64,000 nucleotides of DNA, taken from Fibrobacteria bacterium. GTDB lineage: Bacteria; Fibrobacterota; Fibrobacteria; UBA11236. The translations under genes were made by a program, and so were the position numbers. The DNA lies in NCBI GenBank assembly GCA_050486505.1, contig JBJHDK010000001.1, positions 19,383 to 83,382 of the forward strand. The letters run 5' to 3'. Below the pieces are notes generated by a model. It had not been told where the DNA came from. It searched no databases and was given only the letters and a program-made list of their open reading frames with translations. Shown in pieces: positions 3,667 through 24,946 of the stretch. Every line of letters begins with the position of its first letter. The first letter of the stretch is position 1.

Positions 3667-5088
3667 CTAGTTCGGTGAAGCGGGACCGGGGGTGCCCTCA
3701 ACGTGCTCCCCTCCGGAAGGGGCTTCCCCGGAGTCCCCCCGTTTGCGGGCCTCGATCTCGTTCAGCTTGCGGTAGATGGTGCGCACGCCGATGCCGAGTT
3801 CCTCCGCGCTCTTCGCGCGATCGCCGTGGTTGCGCTTCAGCACCTGCTGGATGACCTGCAACTCGATGTCCTCGAGCTTCGTCCCGGGGCGAAACTGCAG
3901 GCGCGGGGCCGAATCGTCGCCACCGCAGATTTCCGGCGGCAAAACCTTCGGCGTGATTTCCGGTCCGGTGGTGAGGATCACCGCGCGCTCGATGGCGTTC
4001 TCAAGTTCGCGGATATTTCCGGGCCACGAATAGCCCTCCAGCAATTGCAGGGCCTCGGGGCTGAGGGCCAGGGGTTGCTTCCGGTTTTTTTTGCAGTACT
4101 TCGCGATGAAGTACGAGACGTACATCGTGAGGTCTTCCATGCGGTCGCGCAGCGGGGGAAGCAGCAGGGGAATGACATTCAGGCGATAGAACAGGTCTTC
4201 ACGGAATTGTCCCGAGGCGACCATCTTGCGCAGGTCGCGGTTGGTGGCCGCAATGACGCGGACATCGACCTTTTCGGGGGATCCGCCCACCGGCGTGACC
4301 TCGCCCTCCTGGAGCACGCGCAGCATCTTGGCCTGCAGTGCGAGGGGAAGCTCGCCGATTTCGTCGAGGAAGATCGTCCCGGAGTGGGCTTCCTGGAAGC
4401 GCCCGCGTTTGTCCTGGTAGGCGCCCGTGAAGGCGCCGCGCTTGTGCCCGAAGAGTTCCGACTCGATCAGGTTTTCGGGAATGGCGGCGCAGTTCACCGT
4501 CACCAGCGGCTTGTCGGCGCGCTTCGAGTAGGCGGCGATGTAGTGCGCCAGCACTTCCTTTCCGGTGCCGGATTCCCCGAGAATGAGAATGGTGGCCTCG
4601 CTGCCGGCCGCCAGGGACGAAGATTCCAGCAGTTCGCGGAAGGCGGGGCTTTTGCCATCGGTGAAGGCGGGGATTCGCGCCTTTTGAAGCGATTTTTTCA
4701 GCTTGAAGTTTTCGGTGAGCAGGCTGGTCTTTTCGAAAGCGCGGCGCACCACGGCCTCGATCACGGGCATGTTGAAGGGTTTCGAGATGAAGTCGTAAGC
4801 TCCGTAGCGCATCGCGGAAACCGCATCCTCGACCGATCCGTATCCGGTGATGAGAATGACCTGGATGTCGGGGTTGATGGCTTTGATCCTTTGAAGCACT
4901 TCGAGGCCGTCGAGGCCGGGCATTTTCAGGTCGGTGATGACGACTTCGGGAAGCTGTTTGCGGACGATGTCAATGGCCGCGTGGGGGTCGCTGCACTTGA
5001 TGGGCGCGTAGTCGAGTTCCTCCAACAGGGCGGCCAGGGATTCGAGGACGCTGGTATCGTCGTCAAGGATCAGGAGTTCTTTTTTCAT
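3667..5088 (-). CDS. Sigma54-dependent response regulator (NtrC/AtoC family)
   Basis: Receiver [49 protein letters not shown], Fis-type HTH. Confidence 0.95.
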
Positions 5089-20019: not shown

Positions 20020-20028
20020 GGCGAAGGA

Positions 20029-20187
20029 AGTTATGAATTATGAGTTATGAGTTATGAGTTGGGGGCTGGTGGTTGCAAAATCCGGATTTCATGACTGTTA
20101 CCGGTGCTGTCCTGAATCATGATATCCCAATCAGGACGCGACCCGGTTCCCCCAGACTCATAACTCATCACTCATGACTCATAACTC
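20029..20187. repeat. Element bounded by inverted TTATGAG/CTCATAA heptamer arrays between the divergent ispE and argF
   Basis: agttatgaattatgagttatgagttatgagtt ... actcataactcatcactcatgactcataactc. Confidence 0.8.
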
Positions 20188-20205: not shown

Positions 20206-21135
20206 ATGTCCGACTCTTCGAAACACCTCCTCAATCTCGTCGACCAGCCCACGGCTCTCGTGCGGCGACTGGTCGATGATGCCGTGCGTCTGCGCGCGGA
20301 ATTCCGGGCGAACGGCCCGACCGATGCCCTGAAGGGCCGCACCGCCGCCTTGTTTTTCGAGAAGCCCAGCCTGCGCACCCGCGTCACCTTCGAGGTGGCG
20401 ATGATCCAGACGGGGGGCGCGGCCATCGTGCTTGATCCGTCTTCGGTGTCGCTGGGCAAGCGCGAGACCGTGCATGACGCGGCCAAGAACCTGTCGCGCT
20501 GGGTCGACTGCATCGTCGCGCGTACGTTCACGCAGCGATTGGTCGACGAACTGGCGCACCACGCTTCGGTTCCCGTGATCAACGCGTTGACCGACGAGGA
20601 ACACCCGTGTCAGGCGCTCGCCTTCGGCGAGATGCTGCACGAGCGGCGCGGGTCCCTCGAGGGCGCGCGCGTGGCCTTTGTGGGCGACGGCAACAACGTG
20701 GCGAACAGCCTCGCCGCGCTGGCGGGGCATTGCGGAATGCATTTCACGCTCGCCTGTCCCGAAAGCTTCGAGCAGCCCGCGCCGTTCATCGAAAAGGTGG
20801 AAGCGCTGTGCCGCACGACCGGCGGCAGTTACCGTCAGGTGCGCGACCCGCGCGAGGCCGTGAGCGACGCCGACATCATCTACACCGACGTGTGGGTGAG
20901 CATGGGTGAAGAGGAGCATGGCGCGGAGAAGGCGCTGCTTTTCAAGGATTACCAGGTGAACATGGAGCTGCTGACCGCGGCGCCGGAGCATTGCGTGGTG
21001 ACCCACTGTCTTCCGGCGCATCCGGGAGAAGAGATCACGCAGGAGGTGATGGATTCACCGCGCTACGTCGCATTCGACGAGGCCGAAAACCGGCTGCACG
21101 CCCAAAAGGCCGTGCTCCTGCACCTGCTGTCCTGA
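20206..21135 (+). CDS. argF: Ornithine carbamoyltransferase
   Basis: FEKPSLRTR, HPCQ, GDGNNV, YTDVWVSMG, HCLPAH, EAENRLH. Confidence 0.93.
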   Translation: MSDSSKHLLNLVDQPTALVRRLVDDAVRLRAEFRANGPTDALKGRTAALFFEKPSLRTRVTFEVAMIQTGGAAIVLDPSSVSLGKRETVHDAAKNLSRWVDCIVARTFTQRLVDELAHHASVPVINALTDEEHPCQALAFGEMLHERRGSLEGARVAFVGDGNNVANSLAALAGHCGMHFTLACPESFEQPAPFIEKVEALCRTTGGSYRQVRDPREAVSDADIIYTDVWVSMGEEEHGAEKALLFKDYQVNMELLTAAPEHCVVTHCLPAHPGEEITQEVMDSPRYVAFDEAENRLHAQKAVLLHLLS

Positions 21136-21163: not shown

Positions 21164-21745
21164 ATGCCTCGTCCCAAGCTTCACACCGACGCAGCAGTGC
21201 TCGCAGCAGCGCTGGCGGTGCTTTTACGCAAGGGACCATCCAGCTTTACTCTATCCGACGTCGCGACCGAGATCGGCATGTCACGCGCCGCGCTCATCCA
21301 GCGCTTCGGTGACAAGGCCAGACTGCATTATCTGGTGAGGGAGAGCATGACACGCGAAGTGCACGCGTACTTCGATGGTCTCGATCCCGCGCGCTTCGGC
21401 AAGGGCCTCGCACCCCTTTGGGACATGCTCCGGGACTTGATCTCAGGCATGGGTTCGGGAGAGGATACCCCCGGCTACCTGCTTCTTAACTGGGCGGATA
21501 TTCAGGATCCCGGCCTTTTGCTCCTCGCGCGCGAGAGTGATGAACGCGTTCGCCATGAAATCGAAATCCGGCTGCCCGCGAAACCGCATCCTCCGTCGGA
21601 AACCGCGTCCCTCGTTCAAGCCGTGATCCAGGGTGCGTGCATGCAGTGGTTGGTCAGCCGCGAGGGGACGTTGGTTCGTTTCATGACCGACCAAACCCGG
21701 CGGGTCTTGCAGGCGCTTTACCCCGAACACAGCTTCAAACCATAG
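21164..21745 (+). CDS. TetR-family repressor, MphR(A)-like (macrolide-responsive family)
   Basis: MPRPKL...GP..FTLS.VA.E.GMSRAALIQRF...LW..L..L...M...W..+Q.P.L..LA...RLP...VI.GA.MQW...+PEH matches MphR(A) along its whole length (comparison from memory). Confidence 0.85.
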   Translation: MPRPKLHTDAAVLAAALAVLLRKGPSSFTLSDVATEIGMSRAALIQRFGDKARLHYLVRESMTREVHAYFDGLDPARFGKGLAPLWDMLRDLISGMGSGEDTPGYLLLNWADIQDPGLLLLARESDERVRHEIEIRLPAKPHPPSETASLVQAVIQGACMQWLVSREGTLVRFMTDQTRRVLQALYPEHSFKP

Positions 21746-21787
21746 TCCCAAAGAACCGCGAAAAGCGCGGATTCCCCCTGACTTCAT

Positions 21788-21811
21788 ATATAACCGACGA
21801 GAAGGTTATAT
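21788..21811. promoter_or_regulatory. Palindromic TetR/MphR-type operator overlapping a -10 box (TATATT, 21807-21812)
   Basis: Perfect inverted repeat ATATAACC-GACGAGAA-GGTTATAT immediately before the methyltransferase gene. Confidence 0.85.
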
Positions 21812-21812
21812 T

Positions 21813-22907
21813 ATGGCCATGGAATGGGTCGTCTCCAGACAGAACGAAACAACTTCGCCGGTTAACGTCGAGAGAGGGCATGGGGGGCACACTCCAAGGC
21901 CTCTCCTGCCAGGGTTCGTGCCGGAAGAATTCGATGCCTTGCCGCAAGGTGTGCCAATCGTTGATTACTCCGACCTTTTCGGGACGGCGGAAGGGACTCC
22001 CTGGCTGAGACAGTGGGCCTCGGAGCGAGGGGTGGATCTCAGGGGATTGAGACCAATCAAGGTCGAGCGAGGGCCGCGCACCTGCAAGCATTTGTTCGCG
22101 CTGCGCGACGGGTACGCGGTCGAAAGCGTGTTGATCCGCCGTCGCGACGGGGAGACCGCCTGCATCTCATCCCAGGCGGGCTGCGGGTTCGGCTGCCGGT
22201 TTTGCGCTTCGGGTCGGGCAGGCCTCAAGAGAAACCTGCTGTCGGGGGAGATCGTCGAGCAGGTCGTGCGCTTGGGGCGCGGAGTCAACCGGATCGTGTT
22301 CATGGGAATCGGCGAACCTCTCGCCAATTACACGCAAGTCATTCGCGCCATCCACGTGCTTCGGGATCGCCGGGGCATGAATTTCCCGACGACGGGAATC
22401 ACGATCTCGACGATCGGCATTCCGTCCGCGCTCAAAAGATTGCGGGAGGAGCATCTCGGGATCAACCTGACGGTTTCATTGCATGCAACGACCCAGCAGG
22501 TCCGTGACTGGCTGATTCCCGGGGCTCGCGGTCACGCGCTCAGCGAGGTCGTTGCGCGCGCGTTGTCGTGGGGCGAGAGGCACGGACGCACCGTGACCTT
22601 CGCATACCTGCTTCTCCCCGGGATCAACGACTCGCCGCAAGATTCCGCGAGATTGGCGGGCATGCTTCGCGGTCGACCCGCCAGGGTGAACCTGATGCGC
22701 TGGAATTCCGTGGAAGGCGCAGGATTCGCGCGGATCGGAGACTCGGGATTACGACGGTTCAGGGGACAACTGGAACGCGCTTCGGTCCCCGCGACGGTGC
22801 GTGACACACAGGGACTCGACGCATCGTCGGCGTGCGGCCAACTGTGGCTGCGCGACGCACGGGGAAGACCTTTTCCCGCACGCCGCGACCCCGCCCGGGA
22901 CCGATAG
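21813..22907 (+). CDS. Radical SAM 23S rRNA methyltransferase, RlmN/Cfr family with Cfr-like motifs (start may be ATG 21819)
   Basis: VESV, CISSQAGCGFGCRFCASG (CxxxCxxC plus the resolving Cys), FMGIGEP, ITISTIGI, NLTVSLH, TFAYLLLPGINDS, VNLMRWN, ACGQLW. Confidence 0.9.
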   Translation: MAMEWVVSRQNETTSPVNVERGHGGHTPRPLLPGFVPEEFDALPQGVPIVDYSDLFGTAEGTPWLRQWASERGVDLRGLRPIKVERGPRTCKHLFALRDGYAVESVLIRRRDGETACISSQAGCGFGCRFCASGRAGLKRNLLSGEIVEQVVRLGRGVNRIVFMGIGEPLANYTQVIRAIHVLRDRRGMNFPTTGITISTIGIPSALKRLREEHLGINLTVSLHATTQQVRDWLIPGARGHALSEVVARALSWGERHGRTVTFAYLLLPGINDSPQDSARLAGMLRGRPARVNLMRWNSVEGAGFARIGDSGLRRFRGQLERASVPATVRDTQGLDASSACGQLWLRDARGRPFPARRDPARDR

Positions 22908-22919
22908 GGGGACGCGCCC

Positions 22920-23579
22920 CTACCAGGCGTCGTCGTCGCCGGCTTCGGCCTTGGCCGCCGCAGCTTTCGCCTCGAGCTCCTGCACGGCCTCGTTGTACTT
23001 CGTGTTGCAGGGGGTTCTTCCCGCGAAATGCTCCAGGATGGGCGCGAGCTTTTCTTCGGAGAAGGTCAGCTTCATCTGCTTCGTGATTTTCCCCTTGTAT
23101 CCCCACTCCTGCATCAACGCTTCGCTCAGTTCGAAGCAGTCGTCGAGGGCGTAGAAGTTCATCTCCGAGGACTGAAAGGCGTAGCAGACGTCCATTTCCA
23201 TGCACTCGGGAGGGGACTGGGTCTCGTCTTCCATCCACTTGTGCACGTGGCGACGGCGGACCTCAAGCGACTTCTCGAGCTTCATGTATCCGGTGACGAA
23301 GAACCGGCCGCGAAACTCTTCGCGCAACCCCTGATAGCGGGTGCCGAAGAGGAAATAGCGGCGGCGGGCCTTGAACGCAGAAGCACGCGTGCGCGCTTCA
23401 ATGCACTGGATCACGCCATAGGTGCCGGTTTCGTAGTTGGGTTCGAGCACGGGATTGCCCGCTGCGTCGTAGGGTTCGCGCACGGGAAGGTCATGGTCAC
23501 GCGACGACGAGGTGTGAATGAGAACGCCCTCGGCCTTGCCGCGGTAGTCTTGCCATCCGGTCTGGGTCATGATTGCCAT
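22920..23579 (-). CDS. Hypothetical protein (EPNYETGTYG motif)
   Basis: Good RBS (GAAAGGA) before ATG 23579, host-like codon usage, globular composition; function not recognised. Confidence 0.8.
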   Translation of the reverse strand: MAIMTQTGWQDYRGKAEGVLIHTSSSRDHDLPVREPYDAAGNPVLEPNYETGTYGVIQCIEARTRASAFKARRRYFLFGTRYQGLREEFRGRFFVTGYMKLEKSLEVRRRHVHKWMEDETQSPPECMEMDVCYAFQSSEMNFYALDDCFELSEALMQEWGYKGKITKQMKLTFSEEKLAPILEHFAGRTPCNTKYNEAVQELEAKAAAAKAEAGDDDAW

Positions 23580-23793
23580 GTGTCGTTCCTTTCGGCGATG
23601 CCGTGAGGGGCGCGTGCGCCGCGCCGGAAACGTGTTCCGGTCGAAGGCAACGCGCATGTGTCGGGGGTCAGGACAGGAGGATTCGCACCGGAATCCCCGT
23701 GTCAAACGGGGAAGACATGAACAAAAAGGCGCGAGTCATGGTGAATTTTCCGGTTTTTTCCTGTGGTGTCTCACCAATATACACCAAGCGTCA

Positions 23794-24624
23794 TTAAAAC
23801 TCTACGCGTTCCGCAACGACGGGCCGCCCCAGAAATCCGGATGCCAAACGGGTGAAGCCTTCCGTCCTGTCGGTCGTGAAAAAGCGTTCCGTCCCCCCGC
23901 GGGTGAGAGTCGAGGCGATTTCAGGATGGCGGGCCAGATAGTTTTCGAGGGAGGGGGCCACGATGTCGGCCTGCACCAGGATCCGGGTGCTCTCCGGGAC
24001 CACGCGCCTGATGGCGGGGTAAAGCAGGGGGTAATGGGTACATGCCAATAACAGGGCATCGACGGGAGCGGATCCCCCCGCTTGCTCCTGCGTCATCGCC
24101 CAGTACTTGCGGACGAAGTGGTCGAGGCCGGGGCCGTCAAGCTCGCCCGCTTCGACGAGAGGAACCAGCAGGGGGCAGGCGACCTGCGTCAGGCGGATGT
24201 CGGGCGCGAGCTTGGCGAGCTCGAGCGCGTAGCTGTTGGAGCGCACCGTACCCTGCGTGGCCCACAGGGCGACATGCGCGTCGGGGGCCTGGTGCGGCGA
24301 TTCCGCCAGCGCTTCCGCCGAGGGACGGATGATGCCGAGCACGCGCCGGTCGGGCCAGCGTGCGGGCAACACCCGCTGCTGGATGGTGCGCAGGGCTTCC
24401 GCGGAGGCCGTGTTGCAGGCCATGACGACCAGCTTGCAGCCTTGTGAAAACAAATGCTCGACGCCTTCGGTGGCGAAGCGCAGCACGGTCTCGAAAGAGC
24501 GGTTTCCGTAGGGGGTTCGGGCCGTGTCGCCCAGATAGAGCGCGTCGTAGTGCGGCATGCGCTCGCGCACCTTGCGGTACACCGTCAGCCCGCCGAGTCC
24601 GGAGTCGAAAAAGCCGAGAAGCAT
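23794..24624 (-). CDS. murI: Glutamate racemase
   Basis: FDSGLGGLTV, GDTARTPYG, ACNTAS, LACTHYP. Confidence 0.95.
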   Translation of the reverse strand: MLLGFFDSGLGGLTVYRKVRERMPHYDALYLGDTARTPYGNRSFETVLRFATEGVEHLFSQGCKLVVMACNTASAEALRTIQQRVLPARWPDRRVLGIIRPSAEALAESPHQAPDAHVALWATQGTVRSNSYALELAKLAPDIRLTQVACPLLVPLVEAGELDGPGLDHFVRKYWAMTQEQAGGSAPVDALLLACTHYPLLYPAIRRVVPESTRILVQADIVAPSLENYLARHPEIASTLTRGGTERFFTTDRTEGFTRLASGFLGRPVVAERVEF

Positions 24625-24646
24625 GGGAGAGAGGTAGTAACGCAAT

Positions 24647-24872
24647 AGTGGACAGTGAACAGTGAACAGTGAACAGTGTACAGTGTACAGTGGGCAATAG
24701 AACAATGCAACAATGCAACAATGGGCAATGAAGCGGGTGTGTCGGGAGTCTGTGGACGGGTGGGTCTGTTGTCAGGACTGGTGTTCCGCCTCCACATTGT
24801 CCACTGTCCACTGTACACTGTTCACTTTCCTCCCCCGTCCCCCATTGTCCACTGTCTACTGTCCACTGTCCA
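24647..24872. repeat. Element bounded by inverted CAGTG(AA/TA/GA) heptamer arrays between the divergent murI and rpsT
   Basis: agtggacagtgaacagtgaacagtgaacagtgtacagtgtacagtgggcaat... and ...cattgtccactgtccactgtacactgttcact...cattgtccactgtctactgtccactgtcca. Confidence 0.85.
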
Positions 24873-24946
24873 TTTTTCCTCCCTCCCTTGCCCCATCCCG
24901 AAGGATTAGTTATCCTTGATGCCCAATTTTTACGAGGGAGCGCGCA

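Follow-up and report, generated by a model that had tools for sequence, protein, structure and literature searches.

Cfr is among the most worrying of the ribosomal resistance genes, and its origin from the housekeeping enzyme RlmN is unresolved. Where RlmN makes the ordinary 2-methyladenosine (m2A) at A2503 of 23S rRNA and/or at A37 of tRNA, Cfr makes 8-methyladenosine at A2503 (m8A2503) and makes cells resistant to phenicols, lincosamides, oxazolidinones, pleuromutilins and streptogramin A (PhLOPSA) and to 16-membered macrolides. The TetR-type repressor MphR(A) controls a macrolide resistance operon, mph(A)-mrx-mphR(A). Here we describe a 1.77-kb, two-gene cassette of a Fibrobacteria bacterium in which a relative of MphR(A), a putative mph-type operator and a radical S-adenosylmethionine (SAM) enzyme of the RlmN/Cfr superfamily stand together. 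It lies in a 64,000-nt stretch of contig JBJHDK010000001.1, referred to below as the window, whose positions serve as coordinates throughout. The cassette is accessory and horizontally acquired, and on balance we favor reading it as a ligand-inducible RNA-methylation resistance switch built on a third RlmN/Cfr lineage. We prefer inducible RNA-methylation resistance to the other readings on the strength of the type of repressor, the accessory character of the cassette and its recent spread together with the phenicol exporter gene floR.

Organization of the cassette and its operator

A first-pass annotation of the window had placed argF, the TetR gene, the spacer, a palindrome and the radical SAM open reading frame (ORF) at coordinates that were all exact on re-reading. 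The parts of the cassette are as follows:

21164..21745, plus strand: repressor of the MphR family of TetR proteins, 193 amino acids, start MPRPKL (Pfam TetR_N 35.4 bits; PDB matches to MphR(A))
21746-21812: spacer between the TetR and enzyme genes, 67 bp
21756..21770, plus strand: GC hairpin CCGCG-5 nt-CGCGG directly after the TetR stop codon, read from the sequence
21783..21812, plus strand: predicted promoter, with -35 TTCATA at 21783-21788, an 18-bp spacer and -10 TATATT at 21807-21812 (promoter scan)
21788..21811, no strand assigned: putative operator ATATAACC-GACGAGAA-GGTTATAT, a perfect 8-8-8 inverted repeat
21813..22907, plus strand: radical SAM methyl synthase of the RlmN/Cfr superfamily, 364-amino-acid ORF (Pfam Radical_SAM; TIGR00048)

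The window ORF list contains no mph or mrx gene within the cassette. The operator arms, ATATAACC at 21788-21795 and GGTTATAT at 21804-21811, are 100% complementary and lie 8 nt apart. The predicted promoter, TTCATA-18-TATATT, is sigma-70-like with 9/12 matches, and the scan of the region returned two promoter-like sites against 0.4 expected from shuffled sequences. The operator fills the promoter spacer and overlaps both hexamers, so that the -10 element lies inside its right arm. With up to two mismatches, the pattern TATAACC-N8-GGTTATA occurs once in the window (0.01 expected) and once in the whole 2.4-Mb genome, where the reversed pattern used as a control gave no match. No second copy precedes the TetR gene, in agreement with the earlier proposal that the repressor gene has no operator of its own.

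The promoter region of mph(A) on a Salmonella plasmid reads ...ATATAACCGACGTGACTGTTACAT..., or over a longer stretch ...TTGAATATAACCGACGTGACTGTTACATTTAGG..., and has in common with the window operator both the 12 consecutive bases ATATAACCGACG and the spacing of the half-sites. On the basis of sequence alignment, we take the mph(A) operator to lie between the -35 and -10 elements; the promoter scan of the mph(A) region gave no site at threshold, and TTGAAT-17-TACATT scores 8/12 by count. In bases and in geometry, including its place between the hexamers, the window palindrome thus matches what would be expected of an mph-type operator set on a promoter, as had been suggested. A consensus built from 50 sites (39 of them distinct) of related loci reads TTG(-4..-2)...TATAAC-C-GwCG-yG-wCG-GTTATA-wA, with A2, T3, A4, A5, C6, C10, T18 and T19 invariant. 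The promoter layout is kept over the 39 distinct sites: in operator coordinates TTG occupies -4..-2 and TATAwA +19..+24, so that the operator takes up the interval between a -35 (TTGnnT) and a -10 (TATAwA) element that are both conserved. In the window the -35 element is displaced by one base relative to this layout, giving the 18-bp spacer.

The copies differ in what follows the promoter. A second genome of the same genus (G001) has TTTATA-16-TATATT with the ATG 35 bp past the -10 element and a leader of roughly 28 nt, and in a plasmid-borne copy described below the ATG lies about 50 bp past the -10 element, for a leader of roughly 44 nt. In the window (21813-21821), the annotated ATG abuts the operator, and a -10 element at 21807-21812 puts the start of transcription near 21819, which is the second ATG of the enzyme ORF. 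The message of the window copy, which seems to have lost its leader, would accordingly be leaderless and translated from Met3 (ATG 21819), with GTG 21915 as an alternative start.

The palindrome was also considered as an RNA hairpin or attenuator. The spacer folds with -26.1 kcal/mol (z -2.1), and 5 of 200 shuffled sequences folded as well, which is a weak signal; we rejected it as the principal explanation, and the palindrome would remain untranscribed because the predicted promoter, if right, starts transcription downstream of it. The separate hairpin at 21756-21770 is terminator-like on the minus strand only in the terminator scan and, having no T-run on the plus strand, is a weak terminator at best.

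Conservation of the TetR-operator-enzyme arrangement

A scan of one genome per species yielded 80 loci, 51 with an enzyme homologue at least 57% identical to that of the window (the clade of the following sections) and 29 with a homologue at 47% identity or less. In 46 of the 51 clade loci the enzyme gene is preceded, on its own strand, by an MphR-like TetR gene, and the five loci without one have less than 1 kb of upstream DNA (in L020, 968 bp and no TetR gene). With up to three mismatches allowed, the operator closely precedes the enzyme gene in 49 of the 52 loci made up of these 51 and the plasmid locus; the count includes six loci in which another gene stands between the TetR and enzyme genes. 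Among the 29 loci with distant homologues there was neither a TetR gene nor, over 174 kb, any match to the operator. The pairing of repressor and enzyme is therefore conserved well outside the window.

In Pelagibacterium and Chelativorans the extra gene lies between the TetR gene and the operator (L040 1897-2787, L049 2374-2820, L029 1967-2737) and encodes a MarR-GNAT fusion, a SugE-like small multidrug resistance (SMR) transporter or, antisense, a SAM-dependent methyltransferase, and the operator still adjoins the radical SAM gene. Twelve loci (L027, L029, L032, L034, L036-L039, L041, L042, L052 and L084) carry a second operator ahead of the TetR gene, no more than about 125 bp away, which points to autoregulation there. 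In the window, in G001 and in the floR-linked variant the operator stands before the enzyme gene only. Taking the operator and the synteny together, we consider it very probable that repressor, operator and enzyme form one regulatory circuit. The first-pass annotation knew of no described pairing of MphR with Cfr, and our full-text literature searches, whose coverage excluded most subscription journals, likewise returned no description of an MphR-type repressor paired with an RlmN/Cfr enzyme, or of this clade.

The repressor

The TetR protein proved to be a genuine relative of MphR(A). Its residues 1-190 match the MphR(A) sequences of PDB entries 3frq (E 1.4e-31) and 6u18 (E 6.5e-31), and the next PDB match has an E value of only 0.0055. 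By tblastn it is 39.7% identical over residues 1-189 to the mphR(A) product, whose gene occurs on 2809 plasmids. The identity is unevenly spread, with 35 of 60 residues (58%) in the N-terminal, DNA-binding part and 41 of 128 (32%) in the ligand-binding part. Pfam recognizes only the TetR helix-turn-helix, and NCBIfam gave nothing above E 5e-4. A search of a database of 5.8 billion proteins, in which 4297 candidates were scored, returned 151 at E<=1e-15, comprising a few metagenomic proteins at 74–85% identity, many mostly alphaproteobacterial ones at 52–65% and two myxobacterial ones at 47%; identity then drops to 37–40% in the next nearest set, the MphR group. The family is thus small.

Six positions tied to the ligand response of MphR(A) or lying near its ligand, according to the accessible text of a preprint (10.64898/2026.10.16.759199), are all changed in the window protein (F99T, S106N, R122S, N123D, H147Q and P161R), and W107, M155, Q156 and W157 are retained. 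Most of the alphaproteobacterial copies keep R122 and N123 along with these four. Since the window repressor has Ser and Asp where MphR(A) and most of these relatives have Arg 122 and Asn 123, its ligand may differ even within the family. The sensing of macrolides that had been ascribed to it is accordingly not established.

The enzyme: family, active site and RNA-facing residues

The placement of the downstream gene in the RlmN/Cfr superfamily was upheld. In the alignment Cys 117, Cys 124, Cys 128, Cys 131 and Cys 341 fall at the positions that the catalytic cysteines have in RlmN and Cfr; the CX3CX2C motif of class A radical SAM methyl synthases comprises Cys 124, Cys 128 and Cys 131, and Cys 117 and Cys 341 are the counterparts of E. 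coli Cys 118 and Cys 355. The RlmN model TIGR00048 gives 246.9 bits against a cut-off of 290 and matches over model positions 80-343 only, leaving the N-terminal domain unrecognized. The Cfr models NF000424 (185.5 bits, cut-off 530), TIGR04432 (184 bits, cut-off 550) and PRK14453 (185.1 bits, cut-off 468) likewise score below threshold. Among PDB sequences the best match is the Sphaerobacter RlmN-type protein (199.8 bits), ahead of Cfr (158) and E. coli RlmN (143). An AlphaFold2 model computed from 15 sequences has a mean predicted local distance difference test score (pLDDT) of 80.3 and a predicted template modeling (TM) score of 0.82, with residues 1-25 disordered, and in a Foldseek search of the PDB its ten best matches were RlmN or RlmN-type structures (query-normalized TM-score 0.67–0.71), Cfr ranking eleventh. 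From its cysteines and its RlmN-like predicted fold the enzyme appears to be a catalytically complete member of the superfamily, and it is probably an RNA adenine methyltransferase.

The RNA-facing residues were compared in a 24-sequence alignment that included 14 clade rows. Ten residues near A2503 distinguish Cfr from E. coli RlmN in the part of PMC12887959 accessible to us (Met 95, Tyr 97, Trp 101, Ser 103, Asp 150, Ser 151, Ser 153, Ser 328, Gln 329 and Phe 330 of Cfr), which also gives Tyr 97, Trp 101, Ser 103, Ser 151, Ser 153, Gln 329 and Phe 330 as highly conserved in Cfr orthologues. The corresponding positions of the window enzyme are Ile 108, Arg 110, a gap, Thr 115, Asn 159, Arg 160, Val 162, Asp 331, Thr 332 and Gln 333. 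None of the ten is of the Cfr type, and four (Ile 108, Thr 115, Val 162 and Thr 332) are of the E. coli RlmN type. The pattern is the same over the 14 clade rows except for one substitution each in G001 and L032. In addition, the whole clade has fixed replacements at three charged positions that face the RNA (E111R, K345D and R347Q). Alignment with PDB sequences shows that the enzyme also has neither the α1/β2 insertion, with a 7-residue gap to 6fz6, nor the α5/β6 insertion, with a 5-residue gap; the accessible text of PMC13001441 gives the former as a feature of RlmN and the latter as a feature of Cfr.

Two trees were computed, a quick one of 90 rows and a careful one of 34 rows, and the clade was recovered in both on a long stem of 2.3 changes per column (Shimodaira–Hasegawa-like approximate likelihood-ratio test 100; 100/100). 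In the best tree it groups with RlmN-like proteins from planctomycetes and Bacillota (97/95), and Cfr, Cfr(B) and Cfr(C) stand apart (100/100). The approximately unbiased (AU) test did not reject a tree in which the clade was held sister to Cfr (p 0.137), and the deep branches are long. The clade appears to be a third RlmN/Cfr lineage, neither housekeeping RlmN nor Cfr, with fixed RNA-facing residues of its own.

The earlier designation of the enzyme as Cfr-like, if taken to mean that it methylates C8 of A2503 and gives PhLOPSA resistance, is not supported by these results. On that reading the enzyme would be a functional equivalent of Cfr, making m8A2503, conferring resistance to the PhLOPSA drugs and 16-membered macrolides, and induced by macrolides through the MphR-like sensor. 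It shares the superfamily and the catalytic cysteines with Cfr, it is linked to floR in 13 loci, most alphaproteobacterial repressors keep the MphR(A) residues named above, and the sister position to Cfr is not rejected by the AU test. The Cfr models nevertheless score far below their cut-offs, all ten discriminating residues differ, including the seven conserved in Cfr, and Thr 332 occupies the position at which the Q329T substitution impaired resistance in Cfr. The α5/β6 insertion is missing, the best tree sets the clade apart from Cfr, and the window repressor has Ser and Asp in place of Arg 122 and Asn 123. We therefore regard functional equivalence to Cfr as very unlikely.

The same data bear on an alternative in which the enzyme is an inducible isoenzyme of RlmN that makes m2A at A2503 and/or tRNA A37 under ligand control and tunes translation under stress, with little or no resistance. 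RlmN provides the best curated model and the best structural matches, and the four shared residues are consistent with such a role. Against this, the score is below the RlmN cut-off, the N-terminal domain is unrecognized, the α1/β2 insertion is absent, and the three charge changes are fixed throughout the clade. Nor is this the only rlmN of the genome, a circumstance that the first-pass annotation had named, together with an unconserved pairing, as refuting its proposal: besides the cassette enzyme (246.4 bits) the host encodes a canonical RlmN (374.8 bits) and another paralogue (286 bits), three family members in all, and all five of the other carrier genomes tested have a canonical RlmN elsewhere (377–427 bits). 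A duplicate m2A activity would seem redundant since a canonical RlmN is present in every carrier genome checked, and a recent spread with floR is hard to explain for a housekeeping activity. The isoenzyme explanation is, in our estimate, improbable.

The other paralogue of the host genome (G000:C48:3055-4068, L002), whose score falls just below the RlmN cut-off, is placed on a very long branch beside homologues from myxobacteria (94/87).

Acquisition by the host genome

The flanking features are two host genes:

20206..21135, plus strand: argF, ornithine carbamoyltransferase (NCBIfam NF001986 371.9 bits and TIGR00658 353.2 bits, both above cut-off)
22920..23582, minus strand: hypothetical gene, convergent with the enzyme gene; in cassette-free genomes of the genus it is syntenic with argF and murI

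The first is the upstream edge of the insertion, its end (21135) lying 28 bp before the TetR start (21164). The second, whose near edge (22920) is 12 bp past the end of the radical SAM ORF (22907), is the downstream edge and lies outside the cassette; its product has no Pfam or NCBIfam match. The cassette sits between argF and this usual neighbor in 2 of the 12 genomes of the genus, and the TetR gene was found in only 1 of 40 relatives, namely G001 of the same genus, where the order ispE-argF-TetR-enzyme-hypothetical-murI shows an insertion site identical to that of the window. Three other genomes of the genus (G005, G006 and G007) have argF followed directly by the hypothetical gene and murI, with no cassette, and the locus of G002 differs. 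The hypothetical protein is 65–81% identical in the cassette-free genomes of the genus. Between G001 and the window the TetR proteins are 75% and the enzymes 63% identical. The best tree separates the two enzymes, but pairing them is not rejected (AU test, p 0.395), and for this reason a single acquisition in their common ancestor is possible. GC content across the cassette (0.58–0.68) is not distinct from that of the flanks, and no target-site duplication or repeat was seen at its borders.

AT-rich hairpins of heptamer repeats lie upstream of argF at 20027-20187. A similar hairpin follows the radical SAM gene of G001 directly (L044, about 4070-4170), a place where the window has none. Around 24585-24920, in the murI-rpsT interval of the window, the ORF translations on both strands repeat motifs, TVHC/SLFTVHC among them, which indicates more tandem heptamer repeats there.

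Linkage to resistance genes

Plasmid pEJ03 of Rhodobacter xanthinilyticus carries, in order, IS1247, a TetR gene (58% identity to that of the window), the enzyme gene (65%), a LysR gene, floR, tetR(G) and tet(G). The order TetR-enzyme-LysR-floR recurs in 13 loci:

L004 5995-10224; L007-L016, L019 and L024: floR-linked module TetR-operator-rlmN-like-LysR-floR, 4.3 kb

When ten copies were compared with that of L007, nine were 97.6–99.9% identical and the tenth (L010) 91.5%. By record title the carriers are Nitrospira, Brevundimonas, Hyphomicrobium, Sphingomonas, Devosia, Kaistia, Parapusillimonas, Paracoccus, Pseudogemmobacter and Rhodobacter, about ten genera. TetR-enzyme-LysR without floR is found in L006, L018, L022, L028, L033 and L051, with LysR proteins 73–93% identical; this neighborhood could be where floR was captured from or inserted into. 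Elsewhere the neighbors vary; among them are genes for GNATs, a MarR-GNAT fusion, an SMR transporter, an APH-fold kinase and proteins resembling chloramphenicol phosphotransferase and rifampin monooxygenase. The neighborhood analysis of the related loci revealed no constant third gene. The APH-fold neighbor in L038 was considered as a possible Mph and rejected, at 27 bits by NCBIfam.

These neighborhoods are relevant to a further alternative, that the cassette is unconnected with antibiotics: the repressor would sense some other metabolite and the enzyme methylate another RNA or a non-RNA substrate in a physiological role. The low identity of the repressor to MphR(A) in its ligand half and the variable neighbors would fit this, as would clostridial Cfr-like proteins for which the accessible part of PMC5062987 gives no known target, and an engineered MphR that responds to sesquiterpenes through six substitutions, a sign of a plastic pocket (accessible text of 10.64898/2026.10.16.759199). 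On the other hand, the repressor's only characterized relatives govern a macrolide resistance operon, and the only characterized relatives of the enzyme methylate A2503 or A37. The repeated linkage to floR and tet(G) and the scattered SMR, chloramphenicol-phosphotransferase-like, GNAT and rifampin-monooxygenase-like neighbors also argue against a purely physiological role, which we consider unlikely.

Proposed function and significance

In the inducible resistance switch that we favor, transcription of argF would plausibly read through into the TetR gene and so supply the repressor. The repressor would bind the palindrome in the spacer of the sole promoter before the enzyme gene and keep that promoter shut until released by a small molecule, most plausibly a ribosome-targeting antibiotic. 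The derepressed gene would then yield the radical SAM methyl synthase, which would methylate a ring carbon of an RNA adenine, the most probable location being 23S rRNA close to the peptidyl transferase center, giving inducible protection of the target site. Judged from the regulator, the accessory character and the company of floR, we lean, if only slightly, towards the cassette conferring antibiotic resistance. A more specific version, of which we are doubtful but which deserves mention, is that the clade represents a third functional class that places its methyl group at a site other than those of m2A2503 and m8A2503 and gives ligand-induced resistance, and whose floR-linked form is already mobile among environmental Proteobacteria and uncatalogued.

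Several observations weigh against an inducible resistance switch. The right inner half of the window operator, AGAA, departs from the family consensus CGwC, the six ligand positions of the repressor are all changed, and the enzyme has no residue of the Cfr type at the ten discriminating positions. In the pEJ03 record the AMRFinderPlus and RGI layers mark floR and tet(G) and leave the enzyme unmarked, and outside the floR module the neighbors are variable, often being ordinary housekeeping genes; ATP synthase and transporters are among them. Finally, the clostridial Cfr-like proteins gave no A2503 methylation when tested, in the accessible part of PMC5062987, so that membership in the family is no guarantee of a ribosomal target.

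The clade is a well-delimited, widespread and apparently unstudied lineage with a repressor of the antibiotic-sensor type and an operator of its own. If the enzyme protects ribosomes, surveillance currently misses a mobile resistance gene; if it does not, the clade offers a natural experiment on substrate specificity in the RlmN/Cfr family. The cassette also points to a likely evolutionary source of the MphR regulator/operator module used in synthetic biology, and the conserved TetR-enzyme-LysR neighborhood may bear on the place from which floR was captured.

Comparison with known systems

The cassette resembles the mph(A)-mrx-mphR(A) operon of enterobacterial plasmids in the full-length homology of the repressors, the MPRPKL start, the shared ATATAACCGACG, the spacing of the arms and the apparent position of the operator between the -35 and -10 elements. 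The mph(A) operon regulates a macrolide phosphotransferase and a major facilitator superfamily protein, whereas the window cassette would regulate a radical SAM methyltransferase. In the former, mphR(A) stands at the end of the regulated operon; in the window the repressor gene is upstream of the operator and for that reason would not be autoregulated. The operator of mph(A) is an imperfect palindrome and that of the window a perfect one, and the ligand halves of the two repressors are only 32% identical and differ at the six ligand-response positions.

With Cfr, Cfr(B) and Cfr(C) the enzyme has in common the superfamily, the fold and the five cysteines, and both are accessory and horizontally mobile, the cassette enzyme being linked to the phenicol resistance gene floR. 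It differs from them in its 33–35% identity, its scores below the Cfr cut-offs, the absence of all ten Cfr-type residues and of the α5/β6 insertion, and its separate clade in the best tree. The cassette enzyme is also predicted to be under transcriptional control by a TetR protein; cfr is not known to be under control of that kind.

RlmN remains the best match both by hidden Markov model and by structure, with four of the ten discriminating residues. Unlike RlmN, the enzyme scores below the family cut-off, has an unmatched N-terminal domain and carries three fixed charge changes facing the RNA, and it is an extra copy beside a canonical RlmN, patchy in distribution and mobile, rather than a single, vertically inherited copy. 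The clostridial Cfr-like proteins described in the accessible text of Stojkovic et al. 2016 (PMC5062987) likewise form a distinct RlmN/Cfr clade that is neither RlmN nor Cfr; the clade of the cassette differs from them in having a dedicated MphR-type repressor and operator.

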